Source of the DNA: an uncultured Candidatus Saccharibacteria bacterium
GTDB taxonomy: Bacteria > Patescibacteriota > Minisyncoccia > Phycocordibacterales > UBA9973
DNA: 64,000 bases
NCBI GenBank assembly: GCA_964610995.1
Contig: CAZSWF010000002.1
Location: 6,338 to 70,337 of the forward strand
Reading direction: 5' to 3'
Shown here: in pieces, positions 52,689 through 64,000 of the stretch
Position numbering within the stretch: the first letter of the stretch is position 1
Layout of the letters: every line of letters starts with the position of its first letter
Program-made: the position numbers and the translations under genes
The notes under the pieces: generated by a model
The model's database searches: none
Seen by the model: the letters and a program-made list of their open reading frames with translations, nothing else
What the model was told of the DNA's origin: nothing

Positions 52689-54539
52689 CTATTTACCAAA
52701 GTTGGTAATTCGACGTCCTAAGTTGTTTACTGGATTTTCAAGTATGGCAGGCTTTGCCCATACACCAGAAATCAATCCTGTATTTGCGGTCTTGGACTTC
52801 GTGATTCTTTGTTTTAGGAAAAATGGTTCAACCTCTACGTTGTAAAAACTAGCGGCCGCACTATCCATTTCGGAAAGCTTCCTATAAGCAAGAAGAACAT
52901 GTTTAGTGCTCCCGATGGAAATAGCTGACCGAAGCATTGCTGCTAATATCGCAAGAGATTTTATATTGCCCTGATCTAACCATTCACATAAAGATTTGTA
53001 TTCCCCATAGTGAAGCAGTTTTGCGGCCTTTCTCTCTTCTGCGATTCTTAATTTTTCAACCTCAGTTGTCGCTGTTTTAAAAGTTCCAAGTAGGTTAAGT
53101 TTTTTCTGTAAGAGACTAAGCCGATTCAAATCCTTTTCCTCTGTAGGTACAAATTCTGAATAGAACTCGAGTGATCTTACTGTCAATTCACATTCCTTTG
53201 TCTGTAGGGCTACTAAATCCTTTTGAATCTTTTCAACTGCCCGAAGAATGGTGTCGTGATACTCTAGAAAAAGTATCCTTTCTAGCACAACCTTAACAGC
53301 GTATTCATTTTTAGTTTTCATCGCACGACAAAGGAGACTGGAAAGGACGTTAGCAGATGTTGTTTTTGCAACACTGTGTTTAATCATTGCTTCTATCTCA
53401 GTATCGGAAGAAAAAGATCCTTGCTTGAATAAGCCATAAAGTACATCACGGTCGAAGGGTTTAATCGTATATGCCTCTTTACAGGACTTGATAAGGGCAG
53501 GATGCCGATAATCTATCGTAAGCGCCTTTCTACAATCCTCAAGCCTTTTTGCCAACCAGATCGGTCTGTCTTTAAACAGCATAATTTCAAGATTTGGAGG
53601 AACTTCAAAACCACTAATCGCGGCCATTCTATTGAATAGGACTTTTGAATTAACCTTTTGTACTAACCACCACAAAATGAGAGATTCTGTCTGAGAATTA
53701 TTTTTCCCTTGGCAATACAAGCACATTGGTACAAAAGTTGTTAAAGAGCCTCTCTCTACTAACCTCTGTACATCATTGGCTATAATTTTTTTATACCGCT
53801 TCTCGAATGTCTCAGCTGTATCAACAGCCCAGGCAACATCTTCCCGAACAAACGGTATTTGAAATATATCCTTTTGACCCTCATTTTCTAAAGAAGAAAA
53901 ACAGGTTGAAAATATAATTTCAGCTATTTCTCTTTCTCCTAGGTACAAGTAGTACCAGTAAAATGAGAGTAAAAGGTTTCTGCACCCGTATTCAAGGAGT
54001 TTTGATGTAAGGGCAACAAGACAATCGGTTCTCTTTTCATCTTTGGTTCTTAAACAAAAACGATACATTGCATCCCATGCTACCCACTGCCAGCTACTTT
54101 TGCGAGCTTTAACCGCAATTACTTTTTCAACAAATTGCAGTTGCTGGTCATTAATGGGCCACATTCTTTTATGAGCAAGAAGGAATACAATTGTTGATTC
54201 CACACCTTTGTCTAATACATATAGAGTGATCATATCTTCATAGGTGGAAAAGAAATAGGGTTCATTTTCAATTTTATTGAAGAAATCACTTTCTTTATAA
54301 GCATGAATTTCTTTAGCCCTTTTTGTATTTATCTTGCATCCTGTTAAATCTTCAATGAGGGATAAGCGCTCAGCCCCCATTAAATCACGGTGATAACACA
54401 AAACTATAAATGCTTCCGTGTTTTTACCTTCTTCGATAAGCGATTTTGCTTTGGAAATAATTCCTTGTTCATCCGATGTACCGATTTCTAAATCGGACAT
54501 CCTGTTGGATTGATTGGCGAAACGTGTCTTTTTCTCCAT
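52689..54539 (-). CDS. large hypothetical protein (616 aa), AT-rich island gene
   Basis: Long uninterrupted ORF of low GC, predicted helical, with no recognisable catalytic motif. It is the last gene of a three-gene minus-strand operon. Confidence 0.5.
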   Translation of the reverse strand: MEKKTRFANQSNRMSDLEIGTSDEQGIISKAKSLIEEGKNTEAFIVLCYHRDLMGAERLSLIEDLTGCKINTKRAKEIHAYKESDFFNKIENEPYFFSTYEDMITLYVLDKGVESTIVFLLAHKRMWPINDQQLQFVEKVIAVKARKSSWQWVAWDAMYRFCLRTKDEKRTDCLVALTSKLLEYGCRNLLLSFYWYYLYLGEREIAEIIFSTCFSSLENEGQKDIFQIPFVREDVAWAVDTAETFEKRYKKIIANDVQRLVERGSLTTFVPMCLYCQGKNNSQTESLILWWLVQKVNSKVLFNRMAAISGFEVPPNLEIMLFKDRPIWLAKRLEDCRKALTIDYRHPALIKSCKEAYTIKPFDRDVLYGLFKQGSFSSDTEIEAMIKHSVAKTTSANVLSSLLCRAMKTKNEYAVKVVLERILFLEYHDTILRAVEKIQKDLVALQTKECELTVRSLEFYSEFVPTEEKDLNRLSLLQKKLNLLGTFKTATTEVEKLRIAEERKAAKLLHYGEYKSLCEWLDQGNIKSLAILAAMLRSAISIGSTKHVLLAYRKLSEMDSAAASFYNVEVEPFFLKQRITKSKTANTGLISGVWAKPAILENPVNNLGRRITNFGK

Positions 54540-54617
54540 GTTTTTATTTTTTTGTAAGTGAACAATTTTATATCGACTTTATACTACATTGCATATTTAA
54601 TATGTCAATGTCATCAG

Positions 54618-55088
54618 TTACTGAACTTTGCTTCTAAACACTTCCAGGAGAAAAGGTATTTTATCTTTTAGAATGTTTATATTATTACCTATGTCGTTTA
54701 CCTTATCACTCATACCTGAAAGAATTGTAGTAGTTTCTTTTTGTTTTACTTCCAAGACTTCAATTTTATCCCCATGAGAATAGACTAAATAGCCCATCCA
54801 AACTAAAGCTGCGATTGCCGCCACAATAAGGCTAACAAAAATATTACTTAACAGATTTTCAAAACCAAATGCATCTCTTAGTCTCAAACGAAAAGGTTTC
54901 TTTGTCTTTCTACTTTTTTGAGGCTTTTTTTCCTCCTCAAAATTTGAAGAATCAGTTGTATCAACAGTATTAAATTTCTTTTCAGTTGTTTCTAAACCTG
55001 AAGATTTTAATAAAAAACGCTTATATGCATTTTTCTCATAAGGAGTTTTTCCTACATGTTCAGATCTAATGTATCTACTATTTTTCAT
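54618..55088 (-). CDS. hypothetical single-pass membrane protein
   Basis: 156 aa with a basic N-terminus (KPQKSRKTKKPFRLRLR), one TM segment (IFVSLIVAAIAALVWMGYLVY) and a coiled C-terminus. Confidence 0.45.
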   Translation of the reverse strand: MKNSRYIRSEHVGKTPYEKNAYKRFLLKSSGLETTEKKFNTVDTTDSSNFEEEKKPQKSRKTKKPFRLRLRDAFGFENLLSNIFVSLIVAAIAALVWMGYLVYSHGDKIEVLEVKQKETTTILSGMSDKVNDIGNNINILKDKIPFLLEVFRSKVQ

Positions 55089-55776
55089 TTTCGTTAAAAA
55101 TCCAAGGATAATACTTATTATCTAAGTATGAAATAGCATCTTTTATAAAAGCTTCTGTATCGCAGTCTCTTAGATCGTAGAAACTTGGATCATAGTAATA
55201 TTGGAAATCCAAATTTGCTTCAAACTTACCATCTTTTATTTCAGTAAAATTATAAATATAATTTTTGAAATCGTTTACATTTTTTCTATAAAGAGATTCT
55301 TTACTCTCTTCTTTTGATGAGAATGTTAAGTTTATGTTCTGAGCTTTATTTATTTTTGAGTTTGTAATTAATGGTATAACTGCTTTGAGTTTTTCTATAT
55401 TTGAAACTTCATGTCCAAAAATAACACCTATTCTGCTAATATTAACTAGCTCAAATTTTCTAAAAATGTGCTCTTTTAAATAAGGCAATACCTTATCGTT
55501 TAGGAATTTTATTTTTGTATCAAAATTACCTTCGACTTTCAATTTTATAATTAAATCATCTGTATTGATTCTAATATATTCATCTGTTTCAGTATTATAT
55601 AAGATTCTTTCTCGAAGATTGGTATCTCGAACCTCTGGGAACATTTCTGCTCCAAATGGCGACTCTTCGTCGTACAAAATATGGTCTATAATCCTTCCAG
55701 CCTCGTCTCTCAAACGAAAAGATCTCGAATGTCGTATACCTAGAATAACTGAAGTTATGTCCTTTTTTAGATTCAT
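55078..55776 (-). CDS. hypothetical protein (232 aa)
   Basis: AT-rich ORF whose stop overlaps the next gene's start by about 10 bp, with no motif I can assign. Confidence 0.45.
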   Translation of the reverse strand: MNLKKDITSVILGIRHSRSFRLRDEAGRIIDHILYDEESPFGAEMFPEVRDTNLRERILYNTETDEYIRINTDDLIIKLKVEGNFDTKIKFLNDKVLPYLKEHIFRKFELVNISRIGVIFGHEVSNIEKLKAVIPLITNSKINKAQNINLTFSSKEESKESLYRKNVNDFKNYIYNFTEIKDGKFEANLDFQYYYDPSFYDLRDCDTEAFIKDAISYLDNKYYPWIFNENEK

Positions 55777-56046
55777 AGTTAGAGCTTAATATATCATTAG
55801 TATCAAAAATGTCCATGGGGAAGCTTAAGTTGCAATGGTTCCAATTCCCCGAAGGCATTACGTTCGATGGAAAGGATTATGGAACCGTACAAACAGCAGG
55901 TGTTTTCAAGACAAAAGAGGCATTTCTGCCCCTTCAGTCTTCTACGGTGGACTTGGGAGTTCAATTTTGGAACAGATTTGCTGTGGAGTGTCAATATCTT
56001 GTCCATATTATGCGTGAATACAATGCTGACTTGAAAAGATAAAAAA

Positions 56047-56520
56047 CTACCTCCACTGCGTATCACTATTCTTTATGTCTCTCAAGGTCTTCCAGCTCAT
56101 CTCTTCAACACCGCCCGCACGGTCCACGAAAAAAATATAGAGGTTCAATTTATCCATCACATCAAATGGCATTTTTCTCAAGACCATCTTCTTAAATGAA
56201 ATTGGAAAAGCTACACCGTATTTATAGCCGTATTTGTACCCACGCTTGCCGTTGCGGTGCATTCTTGTAATGATTTGTCCTACGGCTGAATTGAAACAGC
56301 TACTCATACTACCAGCGGGACTTTTTACGATAATTGATGGGTCGCCCTTTGCCTCAATCAACCAATAGCGAGAAAAGTTATCGTTTCTGACTTTGATGTC
56401 TACACCCTGTTCCCAGAGTTCGGCATTTCGCAGTGAAGTACTCCATCCTTTTCTCTTCAAATACGCAACCACGTTTTTTTGCACAAAGCTCTCTGTAATT
56501 ATTTCTCGTGTAGCCTTCAT
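56047..56520 (-). CDS. putative PD-(D/E)xK nuclease-fold protein
   Basis: GVDIKV...YWLIEAKG has the spacing of a D...ExK restriction-endonuclease-like core. It is 17 bp downstream of the RT gene on the same strand. Confidence 0.4.
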   Translation of the reverse strand: MKATREIITESFVQKNVVAYLKRKGWSTSLRNAELWEQGVDIKVRNDNFSRYWLIEAKGDPSIIVKSPAGSMSSCFNSAVGQIITRMHRNGKRGYKYGYKYGVAFPISFKKMVLRKMPFDVMDKLNLYIFFVDRAGGVEEMSWKTLRDIKNSDTQWR

Positions 56521-56536
56521 ACTCTCTTTTATAGCA

Positions 56537-57655
56537 TTAGGACATACTCTTCACCAGCTCTTTGACTTCGCTTGTGATTTTCTTGGCATTGCCATGACTT
56601 AATAATCCAAGATAGGACTGCACGGTCTCCTCTTTTGCACCCATCTCCGCGATACGCTTGTACATGCGACGCTTGGTCACGGTCCGCACCGCACGATGGT
56701 CTGGAAAGTGGACCCATCCAAGGAAATCAACGCCCGAGGCGAGCGTCTTTATGAAAACTTTATCTGGATGTAATAAAAGTTTTAACTTTTCTTTAAGAAA
56801 AATTGATATTTTCGGGAGAATACCCTCAAGTACCGCTTTGTCATCGGACAGGAATACGAAATCATCGGCATAGCGGATGTAGTGCTTCGCTTTGAGCGTA
56901 TGCTTCACGAACTGGTCAAACTCGTTCATATAGATATTGACCAAGAGTTGTGAGGTAAGGTTGCCAAGCGGCAGTCCTCTCCCTTTTTGAGTTGAATGAA
57001 AACTGCCAACAATTTCAGCCAAGAGTTCTACGATGTCCTTGTCTGCGATAGAACTTTTAATGATGTTCAACAGGATGTCGTGGTCCACCGATGCAAAGAA
57101 CTTCCGTATGTCGCATTTCAAAACCCAGACAGTGCGTGTGTCATTCTTTGAGACCTTGTAGGACAGAGTACGAAACCGCTGCATTGCCTTGTGGGTGCCT
57201 TTGTTTTGTCTGCAAGAAAATGAGTCAGCAATAAATGTGTGGTCAAAAAATGGATAGAGCTGACGATACAGTGCGTGGTGCAACAATCGGTCCGCAACGG
57301 ACGCCTTGTGAATGTTTCGCGGTTTCGGGTCAGAAATGTTGAACGCTTCGTACGATGAGTGTCGGTATGTTTTCGCTACAAGCGTGCGGTGCAGAGCGAT
57401 GACGTTGCCCATCAGATTTCTTTCAAATAGCAAAACATCTTTTCTTGATTTTTTACCCGACACAAACTCTTGCCACGCAAGGAGGAGGTTTTCGAGAGAA
57501 ATGATATGCTCGTAGCTATGAATAAACCGAGTCCGAGCAATACAATGACCATCACCCCCCCCCGACAATTTTGCCCGTGCTTCAAAAGCTGAAAACTGTC
57601 TATATTCATTGGTATGGATATTATCACGAACTCCCCAAGACACACCGCCACTCAC
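56537..57655 (-). CDS. diversity-generating retroelement reverse transcriptase
   Basis: RT motifs include IRYADDFVFL (YADD box). LPLGNLTSQLLVNIYMNEFD is the DGR-type [ILV]GxxxSQ motif, replacing the QGxxxSP of group II introns. A 9-nt G-run lies in the 5' region, and the start is uncertain. Confidence 0.85.
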   Translation of the reverse strand: MSGGVSWGVRDNIHTNEYRQFSAFEARAKLSGGGDGHCIARTRFIHSYEHIISLENLLLAWQEFVSGKKSRKDVLLFERNLMGNVIALHRTLVAKTYRHSSYEAFNISDPKPRNIHKASVADRLLHHALYRQLYPFFDHTFIADSFSCRQNKGTHKAMQRFRTLSYKVSKNDTRTVWVLKCDIRKFFASVDHDILLNIIKSSIADKDIVELLAEIVGSFHSTQKGRGLPLGNLTSQLLVNIYMNEFDQFVKHTLKAKHYIRYADDFVFLSDDKAVLEGILPKISIFLKEKLKLLLHPDKVFIKTLASGVDFLGWVHFPDHRAVRTVTKRRMYKRIAEMGAKEETVQSYLGLLSHGNAKKITSEVKELVKSMS

Positions 57656-57918
57656 TCGGAGTACGCATTGATACGCTGTTCATAGAAATAATGGAGTCAA
57701 TCGCCGTGGCAAGTTTTCTCGCTCGTATTGAAAAACAACCCTATGTACGGATTGCTATACGAAAAATTGATACGCTCAAAGTACTCATGATGGTGCTTTG
57801 GGAAACGAAGTCGCTCGATGACAAGAAGTACATCGCACTGTCGGTACAAATCGAAGAAATCGGGAAGATGCTCGGCGGCTGGAACGGGCAACTCACAAAA
57901 CAAAACTCTCCCAACTAA
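57571..57918 (+). CDS. DGR accessory variability determinant (Avd, four-helix-bundle protein)
   Basis: LPKTHRHSLGVRIDTLFIEIMESIAVASF...IALSVQIEEIGKMLGGW parallels Bordetella phage Avd (PRKHGVAREMF...AEVGRILGSWIA). It starts at TTG 57571 or a later ATG, on the strand opposite to the RT and TR. Confidence 0.65.
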   Translation: MPVLQKLKTVYIHWYGYYHELPKTHRHSLGVRIDTLFIEIMESIAVASFLARIEKQPYVRIAIRKIDTLKVLMMVLWETKSLDDKKYIALSVQIEEIGKMLGGWNGQLTKQNSPN

Positions 57919-57945: not shown

Positions 57946-58069
57946 TTGCCGAGAGAGCAGCAGGGTTGTTGCCATTGAAGTCATTGCTCAACCAGTTGTT
58001 GCTCCAGTTCCACTGACCATCGTTCCAATACAGGTAACGGACATAGAGGTTGTCGTCAGAGTTGCGGTT
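57946..58069 (-). repeat. DGR template repeat (TR)
   Basis: 124-bp repeat. Versus the copy at 58434-58557, every one of the 19 mismatches falls where this copy has A on the minus strand, so this is the adenine-bearing template. The first 20 bp are identical in both copies (IMH-like GC-rich end). Confidence 0.85.
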
Positions 58070-58428: not shown

Positions 58429-59019
58429 CTAACTTGCCGAGAGAGCAGCAGGGTAGTGGCCATAGAAGGCATAGCTCAACCAGCGGTTGCTCCAGAGCCA
58501 CTGACCACCGTCCCAATACAGGCAACGGACACAGAGGCGGCCGTCAGAGTCGCGGTAGATGGTCCCCCAGAAGAAAATATATTTTCCTTTCCATTCTTCA
58601 GGAATGGCTTTGGGGTTCGCCAATAGGTAGTCCAATACATTTGCGTTCAGTACTTTCTTGCCTTTTAATTCTTCACGCAGTTTGTTGCCTTCGATGCTAC
58701 CGTTCTTCTGTTTCTTGGAGAGATAGAGTTCAACTTTTGAAGCGTCAAACTTAATGTTGCCGTTCTTTTGGTGTTCCTCTACTTTCCAACAACTTGGAAT
58801 GAATGGTGCTGCATCGCAGTCAATAACGTGTTCAATGCCTTTTATTTCGTGGGTGCCGCGTAGCACACCGAGGACCAATTTCATCAGATTTTCATCTTTT
58901 GAAAAATCGTCCATGTTTTTTGGTTCCCAGCCTACTTTTGCGGCTGAAAGGGTAACTTCCCCCATGAGGGTACAGCTAAACTCATTTGATTTTGCCATTG
59001 TTTTAGGTTTGTGACACAT
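58429..59019 (-). CDS. DGR target protein with C-terminal variable (C-type-lectin-like) region
   Basis: 196-aa ORF whose last roughly 40 codons are the VR, with no obvious signal peptide. The start may be the internal MAKSNEF. Confidence 0.75.
   Translation of the reverse strand: MCHKPKTMAKSNEFSCTLMGEVTLSAAKVGWEPKNMDDFSKDENLMKLVLGVLRGTHEIKGIEHVIDCDAAPFIPSCWKVEEHQKNGNIKFDASKVELYLSKKQKNGSIEGNKLREELKGKKVLNANVLDYLLANPKAIPEEWKGKYIFFWGTIYRDSDGRLCVRCLYWDGGQWLWSNRWLSYAFYGHYPAALSAS
58434..58557 (-). repeat. DGR variable repeat (VR) at the 3' end of the target gene
   Basis: This is the counterpart of the TR. TR Asn/Tyr/Asp codons (AAC, TAC, GAC) correspond to R/C/L/Y/H/G/A codons here: TR-encoded NLYVRYLYWNDGQWNWSNNWLSNDFNGNNPAALSA becomes RLCVRCLYWDGGQWLWSNRWLSYAFYGHYPAALSA. 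It ends 2 nt before the stop codon. Confidence 0.85.
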
Positions 59020-59199: not shown

Positions 59200-60546
59200 C
59201 TAGAAATTAGTAAGTAGTGATAAAATCCTTTTCTGTACCTCACTACTTGGAATGGTGGACTCATGGTAACAGTCGTCCTTTTCCGAGAACACAACAAAGT
59301 CCGTACCATCGAATGTATTGATTGGTATCCAAAAAAACCTATCAACAGGGTCGTGACGGTCAATGGCGACACTCACACCAAGAATATAGTCATAATTTTT
59401 CATGTACCCTTTGATGGTGAAGCACCAGTTTGCAACGCCGTCCACTGTGAAGCGTGCCCCAATCGCCATCGGCAGTTTCCTGACTGCCATGTCAGCGTCG
59501 TCAATTTCCATGCCGTTACTCATAAGAAGAGCAGAGATTTCCGTCTGAAGACCACGTCTTGCTTTTCGCACAGCGTATGCACCCTTTTGCCATTTGGTGG
59601 GCATGAGCCAATACAAGCGGTCTTGGGCAGCGTTGAACATCTCCGAAGAAACGATACCTTCAAATGCGTTCGGTTGGATGACCCACTCACTTCGCGGATT
59701 GCGACGGTGCTTCTGTTTCAATCGACCCCATGTCTTGTTGTAGATACGGGTACCAGTGTATATCTCGTTCGTGAGGACATGGAGTACACCAATAGACTTC
59801 CATGTTTTGCCCTGTGCAGTGAGAACGCCCCGTGCGTTCAGTATCTCTGCGATTGTCTGGGGTGACTCCCATTTCTCCACTAACAGCTCGTACATTTCTT
59901 TGACTACCTCACTCGTCCCGTCATCGGCAGGGGCGAAGGTGACACGCTCATTTGAGATTGATTTCCACTCTCCCTTTTTGAGCTTTCGCAACGGCTTCTT
60001 GTCTACGTCGAGGAGCATACGTGTCATGCCAAACGGAGGTTGACCTCCTGCTGAAAACCCTTGCTCGGATACTTTGACACAGCCATGGAACACCTTGCCA
60101 CTCAACTGACGAGAGTATTCAGCAGCCATATAGCGACCAATGGATGTCTGAAGTGTAGAAATGAGCTGTTCATCTTCTTTGGGAAATCCCTGCGAGACGT
60201 ACACGACTTTCTTCCCATTCTGCTTACAAGTGTATTCGTAGTGAGCAGCCTCGTTCTGGTCCTGAAATCGTCCCCAACGGGATACATCGTAGACAAAGAC
60301 ATAATCGAAGGCAGGAGCAAAAGGGTTCTTAATCCAATCATCAAACAGACGTTGAAAAGCAGGTCGGTCCGCCGATAACCCACTTTCTCCCTCATCAGCT
60401 TCCTCATGGATGATTTCGATGTTATGCGTCTTTGCAAATGCTTGCGTATGTCCCTGCTGAATAGCAACCGAGTTCTCTTGCTTGTCCTTTGCGGAGTGAC
60501 GATAGTACGCCACGCCTGTCTTGCGTATCGGTTCTGATATAGACAT
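59200..60546 (-). mobile_element. large serine recombinase (integrase)
   Basis: The N-terminal resolvase catalytic domain (AYYRHSAKDKQ with the catalytic Ser, FDYVFVYDVSRWGR), a recombinase domain and a Cys/His-containing C-terminal region are typical of large serine integrases. Confidence 0.8.
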
Positions 60547-60548
60547 GG

Positions 60549-61424
60549 CTAGACAATTTTAATCGTCTTTCTAATAAGAGCTTGAAGTTGAACGAGAGAT
60601 GCTTTTTCGTTCTTCGTGAAAGATGTGCCATTCTCTTTCTTTTTCGTAATCTTCTTGATGAGGTCGCCGCACATGAGGGCAAATCCCGTCTGGCGTGTCC
60701 GTAGCTCAAGCTCATTTGCAGTCATGGGTATTTTTATCAAGAACTCATGGAGCTCGTCCTCATTGATTGTCGCCTGCATAAATACCTTACCAATCTTTCG
60801 TATGTCGAGTGACTTGGTGATGACCTTTTTCTCAATTTTTGCAAATATAATCGAAATAATATCGTCGACCTCGAGTTTTTTGATTTTCTGAAGTTTCTTA
60901 AACAGGTTGAGCATTGCCATACGAACACTCCTTGGTACGTCGTAACGCTCCATCATTGTCAAGTTCGATATTCTTTGTTTTCGCATCTGCATGGCAAGCT
61001 GGACCGATGACCTACTCATACCGAGATAATCTGCAAGCTCGTGATTACTCTTGAACCCATAGGAGTACTTGATACGCTCCAGAGCTTCAGATTTTTCTAA
61101 CGGGTTCCATGCACGACGATTATTCTGCATTTCATATCGTCGTGTCTCAAACTCACCGTCCGTCATCTTGGGGTAGATACGACACGGCACATGTTTCATT
61201 CCTAACTTCTGGGCACAAATAAATCGACGATGACCGTCGATTATGATGTAACGTTTTTCCGCTATCTGACTTACTTTGATTGGCTCTTCAATGCCATAGT
61301 TTTTAATCGACAGTTTGAGCTTGTTCTTCTCGGCTTCGACTCCGAAGTCTTGTCTCGGTTGATTTTGGTCTCGCTGAACTTGTCCAATAGGTAACTCTGC
61401 AAATATGAACTTTGGTTTTAGCAT
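60549..61424 (-). CDS. ParB/Srx-like nuclease domain protein
   Basis: IGQVQRDQNQPRQDF...LSIKNYGIEEPIKV...IIIDGHRRFICAQKLG is the ParB N-terminal domain signature. It lies 3 bp upstream of the serine recombinase. Confidence 0.7.
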   Translation of the reverse strand: MLKPKFIFAELPIGQVQRDQNQPRQDFGVEAEKNKLKLSIKNYGIEEPIKVSQIAEKRYIIIDGHRRFICAQKLGMKHVPCRIYPKMTDGEFETRRYEMQNNRRAWNPLEKSEALERIKYSYGFKSNHELADYLGMSRSSVQLAMQMRKQRISNLTMMERYDVPRSVRMAMLNLFKKLQKIKKLEVDDIISIIFAKIEKKVITKSLDIRKIGKVFMQATINEDELHEFLIKIPMTANELELRTRQTGFALMCGDLIKKITKKKENGTSFTKNEKASLVQLQALIRKTIKIV

Positions 61425-61643
61425 ACACTTTTACTTTTTTGTGTTATTTAATAATTCCGAAGAAAGAAGTTCCGTGCAAAAGACGGGACCGCGGTCAACG
61501 GATATATTAAGTAGCCCTCTCCGTGTTTTAGAGATAGTGTCTTTTTTCAAAATATATTCATATTAACATTTTGCCCCACTGTGCTCATCACTATATCTAT
61601 GAGTTTTCTGACATCGTAGCAACCCTGTTATCAGGTTTATTTC

Positions 61644-62153
61644 TTATTGATTTCGGAACTTTTTCTGTAATCGAATAAGTGTCTTGTTAATTCCTACTGC
61701 CGCAATCCATGAAATAATCCCTGCAAACAAAATATCAATCAGGAAATCCCGAACGAGCATGAGGACTGGAGCTTCTGATGAGTTAAAAGTTGCAGGCCAT
61801 ACCCATGTATAGCTATTAGCAGTAGCCACTGTTTCTGATAATACATATCCTAGTGCAATGTTTATTCCAACAATCATGAGTACGAGTGAAAGGGTGTATG
61901 CGAGCAATTTTGCCATCCGTGCGGACATCTTTGTAAGAGTGGACAGAACATTCAGAGCACTGGTGTAGGTGAAGACTCCAAGGGCCCCAACGACAGCAAC
62001 CATGAACACGATGTGTCCCTGACTGAAGTAAGTGTGACTAGGAACGTTCAAGGTATAGCCGAGCACCTTGAAAAATGGAGGGATTGTTTTTGCAAGAGCG
62101 AGTGCAGGTAAGAGTAACAGGATAAATATATCGAAGGTTTCTATTTTTTTCAT
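61644..62153 (-). CDS. hypothetical polytopic membrane protein
   Basis: 169 aa with about 5 TM segments and AT-rich sequence. Confidence 0.4.
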   Translation of the reverse strand: MKKIETFDIFILLLLPALALAKTIPPFFKVLGYTLNVPSHTYFSQGHIVFMVAVVGALGVFTYTSALNVLSTLTKMSARMAKLLAYTLSLVLMIVGINIALGYVLSETVATANSYTWVWPATFNSSEAPVLMLVRDFLIDILFAGIISWIAAVGINKTLIRLQKKFRNQ

Positions 62154-62161
62154 GATAATTT

Positions 62162-64000
62162 TTATATAGTGGTTAAAGTTTTAATCGTTTCAAAAAGTTC
62201 TCTTTGACGCTCTTGTAGATGAGCATCAAAGATGACTTTATACTCAAAATCCTTGTTTATTTTTTGAAAATCAAGGAAACCAAGTTCTTTGGCGTACACG
62301 TCGTTGAAGAGTGATGTGACGGTTCCGTCATAGCGTTTCTTATTTGCCTCGTATTCCGTCTTTTCGGACCCTGATTTCACTTCCAGCACCAAGAACCTTC
62401 CTTTGTCAGTTTCTATGAGGAAGTCTGGGAAGTATTTTGATATACGTTGTTCTGTGGGGTTCCAGTACTCAACATAGAAATCGTTGTGAGCATCAGTGGT
62501 GACACCTCCAGTGAAGTAGACATCCTTAATAGTTTCGTTGGTTGTCAGAAATTGGCGGAATTGTCGGAAAAGGTCCCGTTCGTCACTACTGTCGAAGTTG
62601 TAGGGGTTGATATGAAAACCGAGGCGACTTGTTGCTCCGTCCGTCTCTTCTTTTTCCTTGAAGATGACGAGTGCTTTTTTACCTTCCTCCTTGCTCATTT
62701 TGAAGGGATACTCCTTGGTGAGCTCGATTTCTTCCTCTGTTGTTGTCTCGGTCTCCGTATACTGATAAACAGTTTCAAGAACAGTTTGAATGATGAATGG
62801 GAGGAACCCCACACTCGTATTCACTTTATCTACTAACTCACTCCTAGATAATCCGATATTTTCCGATAATTTACTTACCGAAAGGCATGGCAAATGGGTA
62901 TAGCGGTTTATGAGCTCAACGATTTCATAGTAGGTATATGAATTGGTCTCTTTGATTTTCTTTGAGCCGAGCGTGTCGTGCTTGAGGATTGCCTTGCCAG
63001 AACCATCTATGACAAGCTCCGAGCCCAAGAGATAGTGCTCGTACTTTTCGGCCTTGTACTTCTTAATATCAATCTTAATGTCGCTCGTGTCTCGGGCTTG
63101 GGTTGACACGATGTCTCGGATGAGCTTTTTGACAGTGATAGTCTTTTTCTTTTCAACCTTAATTTCAAACTCAAAGCTCTCTTGTTCTTGGTTGTTGATG
63201 TCTTGGATACTTGAGGCAAAGTTGTTCTTGAGTTCTTTGTCGAGGACCTTGTAGTTCTCTTTGGAGAGGAAGATATGGGCTCGTGTTGAATTATCTCCAA
63301 TGGACCGCATGCAGCGTGTGGACGCTTGGAGCACGAAGATTGAGCTCGATGGCTTGCGGTACAGTGCACACGCGACCAGCGAGCGACAGTTCCACCCTTC
63401 CGTACCCTTACCAACAAGAAGCACGAACTGCTTGGTGCTATCTATCGTATCGAGCGTTCGAAACTCATCCTTGTTATCTTCGGCTTCTGTATGGTACTCA
63501 AGGACCTTATCGAGCGATATATTCATCTCCGCAAGCACTCGCTCAATGCGTGGTTTGAGTTCGTTTCGCAAATTATCAATACTTGGAGCATAGAACGCCA
63601 TTTTGGGCAGACGACCTTCTAGGCGGTTTTCTCCGTACTCGGACCAGAATGTCCCAAGGACTTCTTCAATGAAAACCTCTGAACGAACCTCTCCGAAATC
63701 CAGTATCTTTACCTGTTTCAGAATACCTTTCTCTATGCCTTGTTTGAGCCCGAAATGGTACACAACGTCATCTATCATCCTGTTGTTGATATACGGCGTT
63801 CCTGTGAGGTTTACGACCCCTACGAGAGGTGTATTGCCGTGCAAATAGTCAATCGTCTGACGCGTCTTCTTCAAAGCACCTTCGAGATTGACTCCGTACG
63901 AGTGATGGGCTTCATCAACAAATATGACGAGGTTGTTGAGCTCACGGATTGCTCGGAGGCGTGCGTTCTCTACCTCACGCTTGGCAAGCTCACTCTTATC
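62162..64000 (-). CDS. DEAH-box SF2 helicase with C-terminal PD-(D/E)xK nuclease domain (type III restriction Res-like), 5' end beyond window
   Basis: The frame stays open upstream of the ORF-track TTG start. My translation of 63875-64000 gives ...LNNLVIFVDEAHHSYG (DEAH motif II), followed by NLTGTPY (motif III) and helicase C-domain motifs. The C-terminal PDFLIETDKGRFLVLEVKSG is a PD...ExK core. Confidence 0.6.
   Translation of the reverse strand, partial: DKSELAKREVENARLRAIRELNNLVIFVDEAHHSYGVNLEGALKKTRQTIDYLHGNTPLVGVVNLTGTPYINNRMIDDVVYHFGLKQGIEKGILKQVKILDFGEVRSEVFIEEVLGTFWSEYGENRLEGRLPKMAFYAPSIDNLRNELKPRIERVLAEMNISLDKVLEYHTEAEDNKDEFRTLDTIDSTKQFVLLVGKGTEGWNCRSLVACALYRKPSSSIFVLQASTRCMRSIGDNSTRAHIFLSKENYKVLDKELKNNFASSIQDINNQEQESFEFEIKVEKKKTITVKKLIRDIVSTQARDTSDIKIDIKKYKAEKYEHYLLGSELVIDGSGKAILKHDTLGSKKIKETNSYTYYEIVELINRYTHLPCLSVSKLSENIGLSRSELVDKVNTSVGFLPFIIQTVLETVYQYTETETTTEEEIELTKEYPFKMSKEEGKKALVIFKEKEETDGATSRLGFHINPYNFDSSDERDLFRQFRQFLTTNETIKDVYFTGGVTTDAHNDFYVEYWNPTEQRISKYFPDFLIETDKGRFLVLEVKSGSEKTEYEANKKRYDGTVTSLFNDVYAKELGFLDFQKINKDFEYKVIFDAHLQERQRELFETIKTLTTI

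Follow-up and report, generated by a model that had tools for sequence, protein, structure and literature searches.

A predicted XisH-like PD-(D/E)xK nuclease of a restriction-linked family stands beside a DGR reverse transcriptase and is not part of the DGR

In the 64,000-nucleotide stretch of DNA that was analysed here (the window), a small open reading frame, ORF157, directly follows the reverse transcriptase (RT) gene of a DGR, which raises the question of whether its product serves the DGR or belongs to something else. The initial annotation had offered two answers: a nuclease-fold accessory factor of the DGR or an unrelated abortive-infection-type gene that hitch-hikes on the island. The features that surround the junction are as follows.

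56047..56520, minus strand: ORF157, 157 aa, ATG start, predicted XisH-like PD-(D/E)xK protein, free-standing
56521..56536, minus strand: spacer between the RT and ORF157, 16 nt, with the RBS-like AAGAGAG
56537..57655, minus strand: DGR reverse transcriptase (RVT_1 E 1e-24, PADLOC RT models)
57571..57918, plus strand: Avd-like DGR accessory gene, on the opposite strand to the RT
57946..58068, minus strand: TR (template repeat), 86% identical to the VR
58429..59019, minus strand: DGR target gene, 196 aa, with the VR (58434-58556) at its 3' end

The initial annotation, which did not name the strand, was right that a 157-aa frame follows the RT on the same strand (minus), but its spacing of 17 nt has to be corrected to 16 nt, as the RT stop codon occupies 56537-56539 and the ATG of ORF157 occupies 56518-56520. 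On the coding strand, the spacer reads TGCTATAAAAGAGAGT, which is purine-rich and includes the RBS-like AAGAGAG. Because a consensus scan revealed neither a terminator-like site nor a promoter-like site above the background between the two genes, the co-transcription of the RT and ORF157 in this strain is plausible. The junction is strain-specific: nucleotide homology to other loci ends inside each of the flanking CDS, and the only locus that spans it, a 1.7-kb contig (L123), is 100% identical to the window and therefore comes from the same strain. Downstream of ORF157 (52689-55776, minus strand), there are three co-directional genes that encode proteins of 232 aa, 156 aa (with a membrane helix) and 616 aa. 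The 616-aa protein gave a REase_II match at chance level, none of the three could be assigned to a recognised family, and no relatives of them were found in any of the homologue or RT loci that were fetched.

The element beside ORF157 is a true and complete CPR-type DGR. Of the differences between TR and VR in the compared stretch, 23 affect adenines of the TR (coding strand), and the 17 of other kinds are located almost exclusively outside the 123-nt repeat. The RT likely starts near 57544 (335 aa), because its relatives align from residues 1-10 of this shorter version; with the alternative start, a GTG at 57655, it would overlap avd. The layout of the element, target-TR-(avd)-RT or 'B3', is complete without ORF157. 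This is the layout that Wu et al. described in 90% of the CPR DGRs, and the known classes of DGR accessory proteins, i.e., Avd, HRDC, MSL and CH1, include no nuclease (PMC5758913).

A DGR accessory nuclease would be a protein that aids mutagenic retrohoming; it might, for instance, nick the VR target or process the cDNA. ORF157 starts 16 nt past the RT stop, in the same orientation and without an intervening terminator. This position, which makes co-transcription probable, fits such a role, as does one other locus (L010, RT 66% identical) that also has a homologue in the same island. However, the linkage did not hold in either direction. Among the 80 closest RT loci in metagenomes (L039-L118, RTs 59-70% identical), 59 of which have at least 500 bp downstream of the RT, not one had a homologue of ORF157 within about 6 kb of the RT. 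In the homologue-side set, which consisted of 35 loci (31 species-level genome loci and the loci that were looked up for individual homologues), an RT was found within 8 kb of the homologue only in L010, and 34 loci had none. Even in L010, it is a Type III res gene that directly precedes the homologue, and the DGR with its RT lies 3 kb further downstream, so the homologue and the RT are not adjacent. The likeness of ORF157 to Avd, HRDC, MSL and CH1 is limited to its position as a small gene beside an RT; it is not conserved with DGRs, it has a different fold, and the DGR in the window already has its Avd. The recurrence of homologues next to DGR RTs in related genomes, for which the initial annotation had recommended a search, was thus not found, which refutes a conserved association, and the accessory role that it had proposed is scarcely credible. 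The position of ORF157 after the RT is a local accident, and the RT is not functionally tied to it, which discards a tempting wrong lead, namely a nuclease cofactor for DGR retrohoming. As a separate observation, nearly all of the 80 RT loci have avd on the opposite strand with its start at or just upstream of the RT start, and the divergent orientation of avd and the RT is stable in this DGR lineage.

The initial annotation had also suspected a nuclease fold because of a D...E-A-K core, and here it was borne out by the AlphaFold2 model, Foldseek, the family profile and hhalign, which all lead to PD-(D/E)xK. The motifs that it quoted are present in ORF157 as GVD41IKV and YWLIE56AK58G. The model (pLDDT 79.8, pTM 0.78) has a single domain with a core of helix 10-23, strands 27-28, 42-45 and 52-57, helix 72-88 and strand 99-106, which corresponds to the alpha-beta-beta-beta-alpha-beta core of the PD-(D/E)xK proteins. 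The catalytic signature is also present, with an acidic residue on helix 1, a D that opens strand 2 and a (D/E)xK on strand 3; the candidate catalytic residues are E10, D41, E56 and K58, together with the helix motif G81-Q82...R86. The comparison with restriction-endonuclease-like folds that had been suggested thus returned this core fold, and two XisH structures, 2inb and 2okf, were the top Foldseek matches and the only ones with an E below 1e-3. As modelled, ORF157 belongs to the PD-(D/E)xK fold and is probably a nuclease with an intact active site.

Sequence searches with the single protein were uninformative: the window protein had no match among the Pfam (E up to 1), NCBIfam, PHROG and PADLOC models, and phmmer against the PDB sequences returned nothing. 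A scan of 81 diverse family members with NCBIfam was equally empty, and PADLOC gave at most chance-level matches for ORF157 and the 81 members, which means that the family corresponds to no described defence system. A profile of close homologues (A1) had only chance matches to Na+/H+ exchangers in the PDB, and XisH emerged only with the profile of the 81 diverse members (A2), which found 2okf and 2inb by sequence alone (E 0.004, full length). The alignment between A2 and XisH covers the ExK strand, the (A/S)LGQ(I/F)xxR helix motif and the strand after it, and hhalign gave a probability of 82% (E 1e-5). When the 81 members were scanned individually with Pfam, all of the matches were below the curated thresholds: Mrr_cat in 26 (best E 1e-5), NOV_C in 24 and the XisH model in two, weakly (best E 0.018). 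The best viral structure matches (BFVD) were MmcB-like small phage nucleases with a TM of about 0.5. The small PD-(D/E)xK domains of the Mrr_cat, NOV_C and MmcB-like types share the superfamily and the core motif with ORF157, and a minority of members match them weakly; however, these matches are sub-threshold, there is none for ORF157 itself, and the structural scores are lower than those for XisH.

XisH (PF08814; 2okf and 2inb), which controls the excision of the fdxN element in heterocystous cyanobacteria, resembles the family in its size (about 130-157 aa), its single PD-(D/E)xK domain, the shared elements hh-E-x-K, (A/S)-(L/V)-G-Q-(I/F)-x-x-(R/Y) and a Y-h-A-h-P strand, and in that some family members adjoin large serine recombinases. 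In contrast to XisH, to which the identity is only about 17%, ORF157 is unmatched by the Pfam XisH model, no xisI partner occurs beside the genes of its family, the hosts are mainly CPR/Patescibacteria rather than cyanobacteria, the dominant neighbours are restriction-modification genes, and the family adds the elements ELWE and GDPS and a YKYGYKYG hairpin. On these comparisons, the ORF157 family is to be regarded as separate from Pfam XisH and as its distant sister.

A search of 5.8 billion proteins returned 319 homologous clusters for ORF157, the best 120 of which are 68-99% identical, about 150 aa long and all unnamed; the labelled members among these 120 come from Patescibacteria/CPR. When 1.84 billion cluster representatives were searched exhaustively with HMMER, just 225 clusters at 50% identity were found (E up to 1e-3), and the family is therefore rare. 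The acidic and lysine residues of the D...E-A-K core that had been noticed are highly conserved: E10, D41, E56 and K58 are invariant in 45 aligned homologues, in which there are about 50 invariant positions in all, and the additional elements ELWE, GDPS and YKYGYKYG are conserved as well. In the 81 diverse members (25-57% identity), E10, G39, D41, E56, K58, G59, G81, R86 and P106 are each at least 90% conserved. Moreover, a comparison of ORF157 with 14 homologues yielded a pN of 0.12-0.31 per site and a pS of 0.7-0.94, which is saturated; the copies are therefore old, and the protein has been under strong purifying selection. By its many homologues, its invariant residues and its pattern of substitution, ORF157 is a real gene and not a chance ORF. 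Frameshifted or truncated family copies are also found (L030 235-686, L033 4407-4838 and L038 4268-4480), so the gene decays in some genomes.

The company that the family keeps was determined by annotating the genes upstream of the homologues with Pfam. Usually, the homologue closes a cluster of co-directional genes; it overlaps the upstream gene or follows it with a gap of no more than about 22 nt in approximately 17 of 27 loci. Type III Mod-(OLD)-Res genes lie upstream in L001/L011, L010, L019 and L023, with Res directly upstream in L001, L010, L019 and L023, and a Type III-like MTase-Res...S49 peptidase array precedes the homologue in L120. Type I genes are found as HsdM-HsdS in L009, HsdR in L015 and HsdS-BroN-HsdR-YgjP-RadC in L003, in each case with a Type I gene directly upstream, and as HsdR...Cas4-like nuclease in L029. 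Other upstream genes are an N6_N4 methyltransferase (directly, in L025 and L027), an EcoRI-type MTase-GmrSD-Shedu array (L022, Shedu directly), an EcoRI-type MTase-Schlafen/AlbA_2 array (L034, Schlafen directly), a gene for a 1721-aa SF1 helicase-REase (directly, in L031), DUF4238 (L032), Fic (L026) and RhuM (L028). In a few loci, the context is unrelated to defence: the gene follows DnaK (L012) or PilB (L013) or has ribosomal protein genes as neighbours (L006). No conserved downstream gene was detected by clustering; the downstream genes that were scanned encode a glyoxalase, NUDIX, GIY-YIG and unknown proteins.

This association was measured against the RT loci as controls by tblastn with twelve restriction-modification proteins, in which a match to a protein from the same locus was disregarded. 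Fifteen of the 35 homologue loci contained restriction genes, compared with one of the 80 RT loci, in a jackknife that undercounts the homologue loci and with about 376 kb of loci of at least 7 kb in each set. In a neighbour-joining tree of the homologues, the restriction contexts are scattered over all of the major branches. Furthermore, in L024 and L124-126, a C-terminal remnant is what is left of res upstream of the intact homologue, which indicates that the homologue is kept when res decays. The family thus travels with restriction-modification and defence genes and not with DGRs. As for the second answer of the initial annotation, an unrelated gene that rides on the island is essentially correct, but nothing was found that supports abortive infection, and the recurrent partner is restriction-modification. 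The window itself carries part of such a system.

62162..64000, minus strand: Type III res, C-terminal part, cut by the window end, with its own PD...EVK motif intact

The res gene of the window lies 5.6 kb upstream of ORF157 and encodes a protein with 83% identity to the Res of L010, a MAG contig; phmmer of the res fragment against the PDB sequences gave no informative match. The mod gene that matches this res should lie beyond the window. ORF157 as a replacement nuclease for an adjacent Type III Res was considered and rejected: the Res proteins of the window, L010, L019, L023, L001 and L120 all keep their C-terminal PD...E-x-K domain, and the homologue is therefore no stand-in for a lost nuclease.

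Frequent proximity to methyltransferase genes, along with the weak Mrr_cat matches in 26 of the 81 members (best E 1e-5), could also mean that ORF157 is itself a small restriction endonuclease, of Type II or of Type IV (Mrr-like), with a specificity of its own for a sequence or a modification. This is very improbable. A Type II enzyme is expected to have a constant cognate methyltransferase, whereas the methyltransferases adjacent to the homologues are from four unrelated classes (Type I HsdM, Type III Mod, N6_N4 and EcoRI-like) or are absent altogether. The protein has no reader or recognition domain, and homologues in differing restriction-modification contexts are 70-87% identical, unlike the fast-diverging Type II enzymes. 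In the case of the Mrr-like enzymes, neither an Mrr_cat match above the threshold nor an N-terminal DNA-binding domain was found; the window protein has a single domain and no Mrr_cat match.

Additional genes within restriction-modification operons that are co-expressed with them, for which the gene of PrrC (an anticodon nuclease) and the rlo genes of Type I hsd loci are examples, offer a parallel. As in those cases, ORF157 would be a nuclease-type gene added to a restriction operon and a candidate for a second line of defence. PrrC, however, is an ABC-ATPase-like anticodon nuclease with no relationship to ORF157 in sequence or fold, and there is no sign here of activation by anti-restriction factors or of RNA targets.

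Taken together with the fold, it is very likely that ORF157 encodes a free-standing XisH-like PD-(D/E)xK endonuclease with an intact active site, which belongs to an unannotated, restriction-linked family and is expressed from the operon that it terminates. The best overall explanation, to which we assign a probability of about 60%, is that of an intact nuclease that is not part of the DGR, acts as a restriction or defence auxiliary and came to stand beside the RT through a rearrangement of the island. According to this explanation, the protein would be made by read-through from the upstream operon, here the RT transcript, and the family would consist of promoter-less, operon-terminal genes in restriction and defence neighbourhoods, mostly in CPR/Patescibacteria. 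The protein, which has no recognition domain apart from its nuclease domain, would act as a metal-dependent DNA endonuclease. It is extremely conserved and is paired with restriction systems that differ in specificity, which suggests that it may recognise DNA structure or DNA ends rather than sequence. Its most likely service would be to restriction-based defence as an auxiliary or back-up DNA nuclease, a role that we propose tentatively and rate at somewhat less than even odds. Several observations count against it: there is no obvious need for an extra nuclease, since the Res proteins keep PD...EVK and the HsdR of L003 keeps HSDR_N, and several homologues stand in the non-defence contexts mentioned above (L012, L013 and L006). 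Defence islands gather unrelated genes, so enrichment near restriction genes is no proof of cooperation, and sequence conservation this strong is unusual among defence genes.

A more far-reaching possibility, which we regard as unlikely, is that CPR bacteria have in this family an unrecognised and unusually conserved partner of their translocating restriction enzymes (Type I and Type III). It could be a structure- or end-specific processing nuclease, which would finish off or process restricted DNA in genomes with minimal recombination and repair, or a latent guard effector that is freed upon inhibition of the restriction complex. A further version would be a solo XisH-type factor through which serine recombinases can move whole restriction-modification islands. 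If such cooperation with Type I/III enzymes or serine recombinases were true, it would add a component to CPR defence or island mobility and would provide a second, independent handle on the function of XisH-type proteins. As it stands, ORF157 is an ordinary defence-island nuclease gene, and its family is a new one of a well-known kind. The analysis defines an unannotated XisH-like nuclease family that is strongly conserved and consistently accompanied by restriction-modification genes. To specialists, it may be of interest for how unusually conserved it is, for its fidelity to restriction systems of more than one type and for the light that it may shed on XisH.

The way in which ORF157 came to its present position can be read from the DNA between res and the DGR and from that immediately downstream of ORF157, where the following features are found.

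61644..62153, minus strand: gene of a 169-aa predicted membrane protein, in the slot directly after res
61540..61657, minus strand: conserved intergenic block of about 120 nt, which matches L010 8448-8567
60549..61424, minus strand: ParB_N plus HTH protein, 291 aa, beside the recombinase
59200..60546, minus strand: large serine recombinase, 448 aa, with Resolvase and Recombinase domains, 2.7 kb upstream of ORF157
55809..56042, plus strand: 77-codon ORF, convergent with ORF157, which ends 4 nt from the ORF157 stop

In L010, L019, L023 and L001, the slot directly after res carries an ORF157 homologue, while in the window it carries the 169-aa gene. A blastn comparison of the minus strand of the window with L010 showed a shared order of res, the slot, the conserved 120-nt block, cargo and the DGR; ORF157 after the DGR is found only in the window and not in L010. 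The first 19 nt of the block (61657-61639, TCCGAAATCAATAAGAAAT) form the last codons of the 169-aa gene. The same 19 nt, TCCGAAATCAATAAGAAAT, correspond to the 3' tail of the L010- and L013-type homologues and are identical to that of L013. They are a relic of an older ORF157-type copy in the canonical post-res position. The slot thus presents the picture of a precise gene replacement that left the relic and the conserved block behind. The cargo between the block and the DGR differs, consisting of a Cas4-like nuclease gene and two other genes in L010 and of the ParB-HTH and serine recombinase genes in the window; being variable, it may be a mobile segment (59200-61424).

In the homologue tree, ORF157 itself groups with the L120/L124 sub-lineage and not with L010/L013. 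A convergent serine recombinase gene follows the homologue in L124, and a recombinase relic is present in L120. The 77-codon ORF in the window contains the FPEGITFDGKDYGT motif, which also occurs near the C-terminus of the L021 recombinase, and its matches to recombinases (tblastn E 0.008, hmmsearch E 1e-3) are weak and come from tiny databases. It is probably, on this slight similarity, a truncated C-terminal relic of a large serine recombinase. The simplest reading is that the gene arrived a second time, independently and along with a recombinase, beside the DGR; the adjacency of ORF157 to the RT would then be a by-product of this event.

The recombinases also lend themselves to the main rival of the restriction-auxiliary reading, in which ORF157 would be a XisH-like helper that assists or directs a serine recombinase to excise, integrate or invert the island, for example by mobilising restriction-modification cassettes. 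XisH is the nearest characterised relative by both structure and profile, and in Anabaena the large serine recombinase XisF depends on both xisH and xisI to excise the fdxN element, although the exact roles of these two remain unclear (PMC4874684, PMC11249958, PMC4853749). Serine-recombinase genes were found near the homologue in nine of the 35 loci compared with two of the 80 controls. Tail-to-tail pairs with ends that are 2-4 nt apart occur in L016, L017 and L020, with HsdM-HsdS following the pair in L016 and L017, and relics are present in L018, L030 and L120. In the window, a complete recombinase lies 2.7 kb upstream and the putative relic lies 4 nt from the ORF157 stop. We nevertheless consider this role rather improbable. 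No XisI-like partner accompanies the family and the downstream neighbours are heterogeneous; the tight pairing is limited to one clade of the homologue tree; the recombinases come from at least three unrelated subfamilies (23-35% identity or none); some three quarters of the loci lack a recombinase within 8 kb; and recombinases are general marks of mobile islands. The 3' end of ORF157 as an att site for the abutting recombinases was rejected, since the 3' ends and downstream DNA of 23 loci share no common core or repeat. A repeat search in the window found nothing convincing besides the TR/VR pair.

Repeated changes of place could also be the mark of a selfish endonuclease cassette, i.e., a promoter-less, homing-endonuclease-like gene that inserts at operon 3' ends and persists for its own sake. 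The rare and patchy spread (225 clusters at 50% identity among 1.84 billion proteins), the repeated switching between unrelated upstream operons across the homologue tree, the operon-terminal placement with tiny gaps, the replacement in the post-res slot that left the 19-nt relic and the two copies in one MAG (L020 and L023) agree with such a life style. Against it, synonymous sites are saturated between all of the compared copies, so no recent spread is visible, nucleotide homology never passes the CDS, no flanking repeats or target-site signature were seen, and there is no intron or intein context. The long and very strong purifying selection fits a function that is useful to the host better. 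A cassette of this type is quite improbable, and the restriction-auxiliary nuclease remains the preferred reading.

The MAG with two family copies, CAZUZL01, holds diverged versions on the contigs L020 and L023: one is paired tail-to-tail with a serine recombinase gene, and the other follows Type III Mod-Res directly. A scan of IMG/VR yielded one 'viral' contig (L119), which, because it has HsdM and a serine recombinase aboard, looks like an island rather than a phage.
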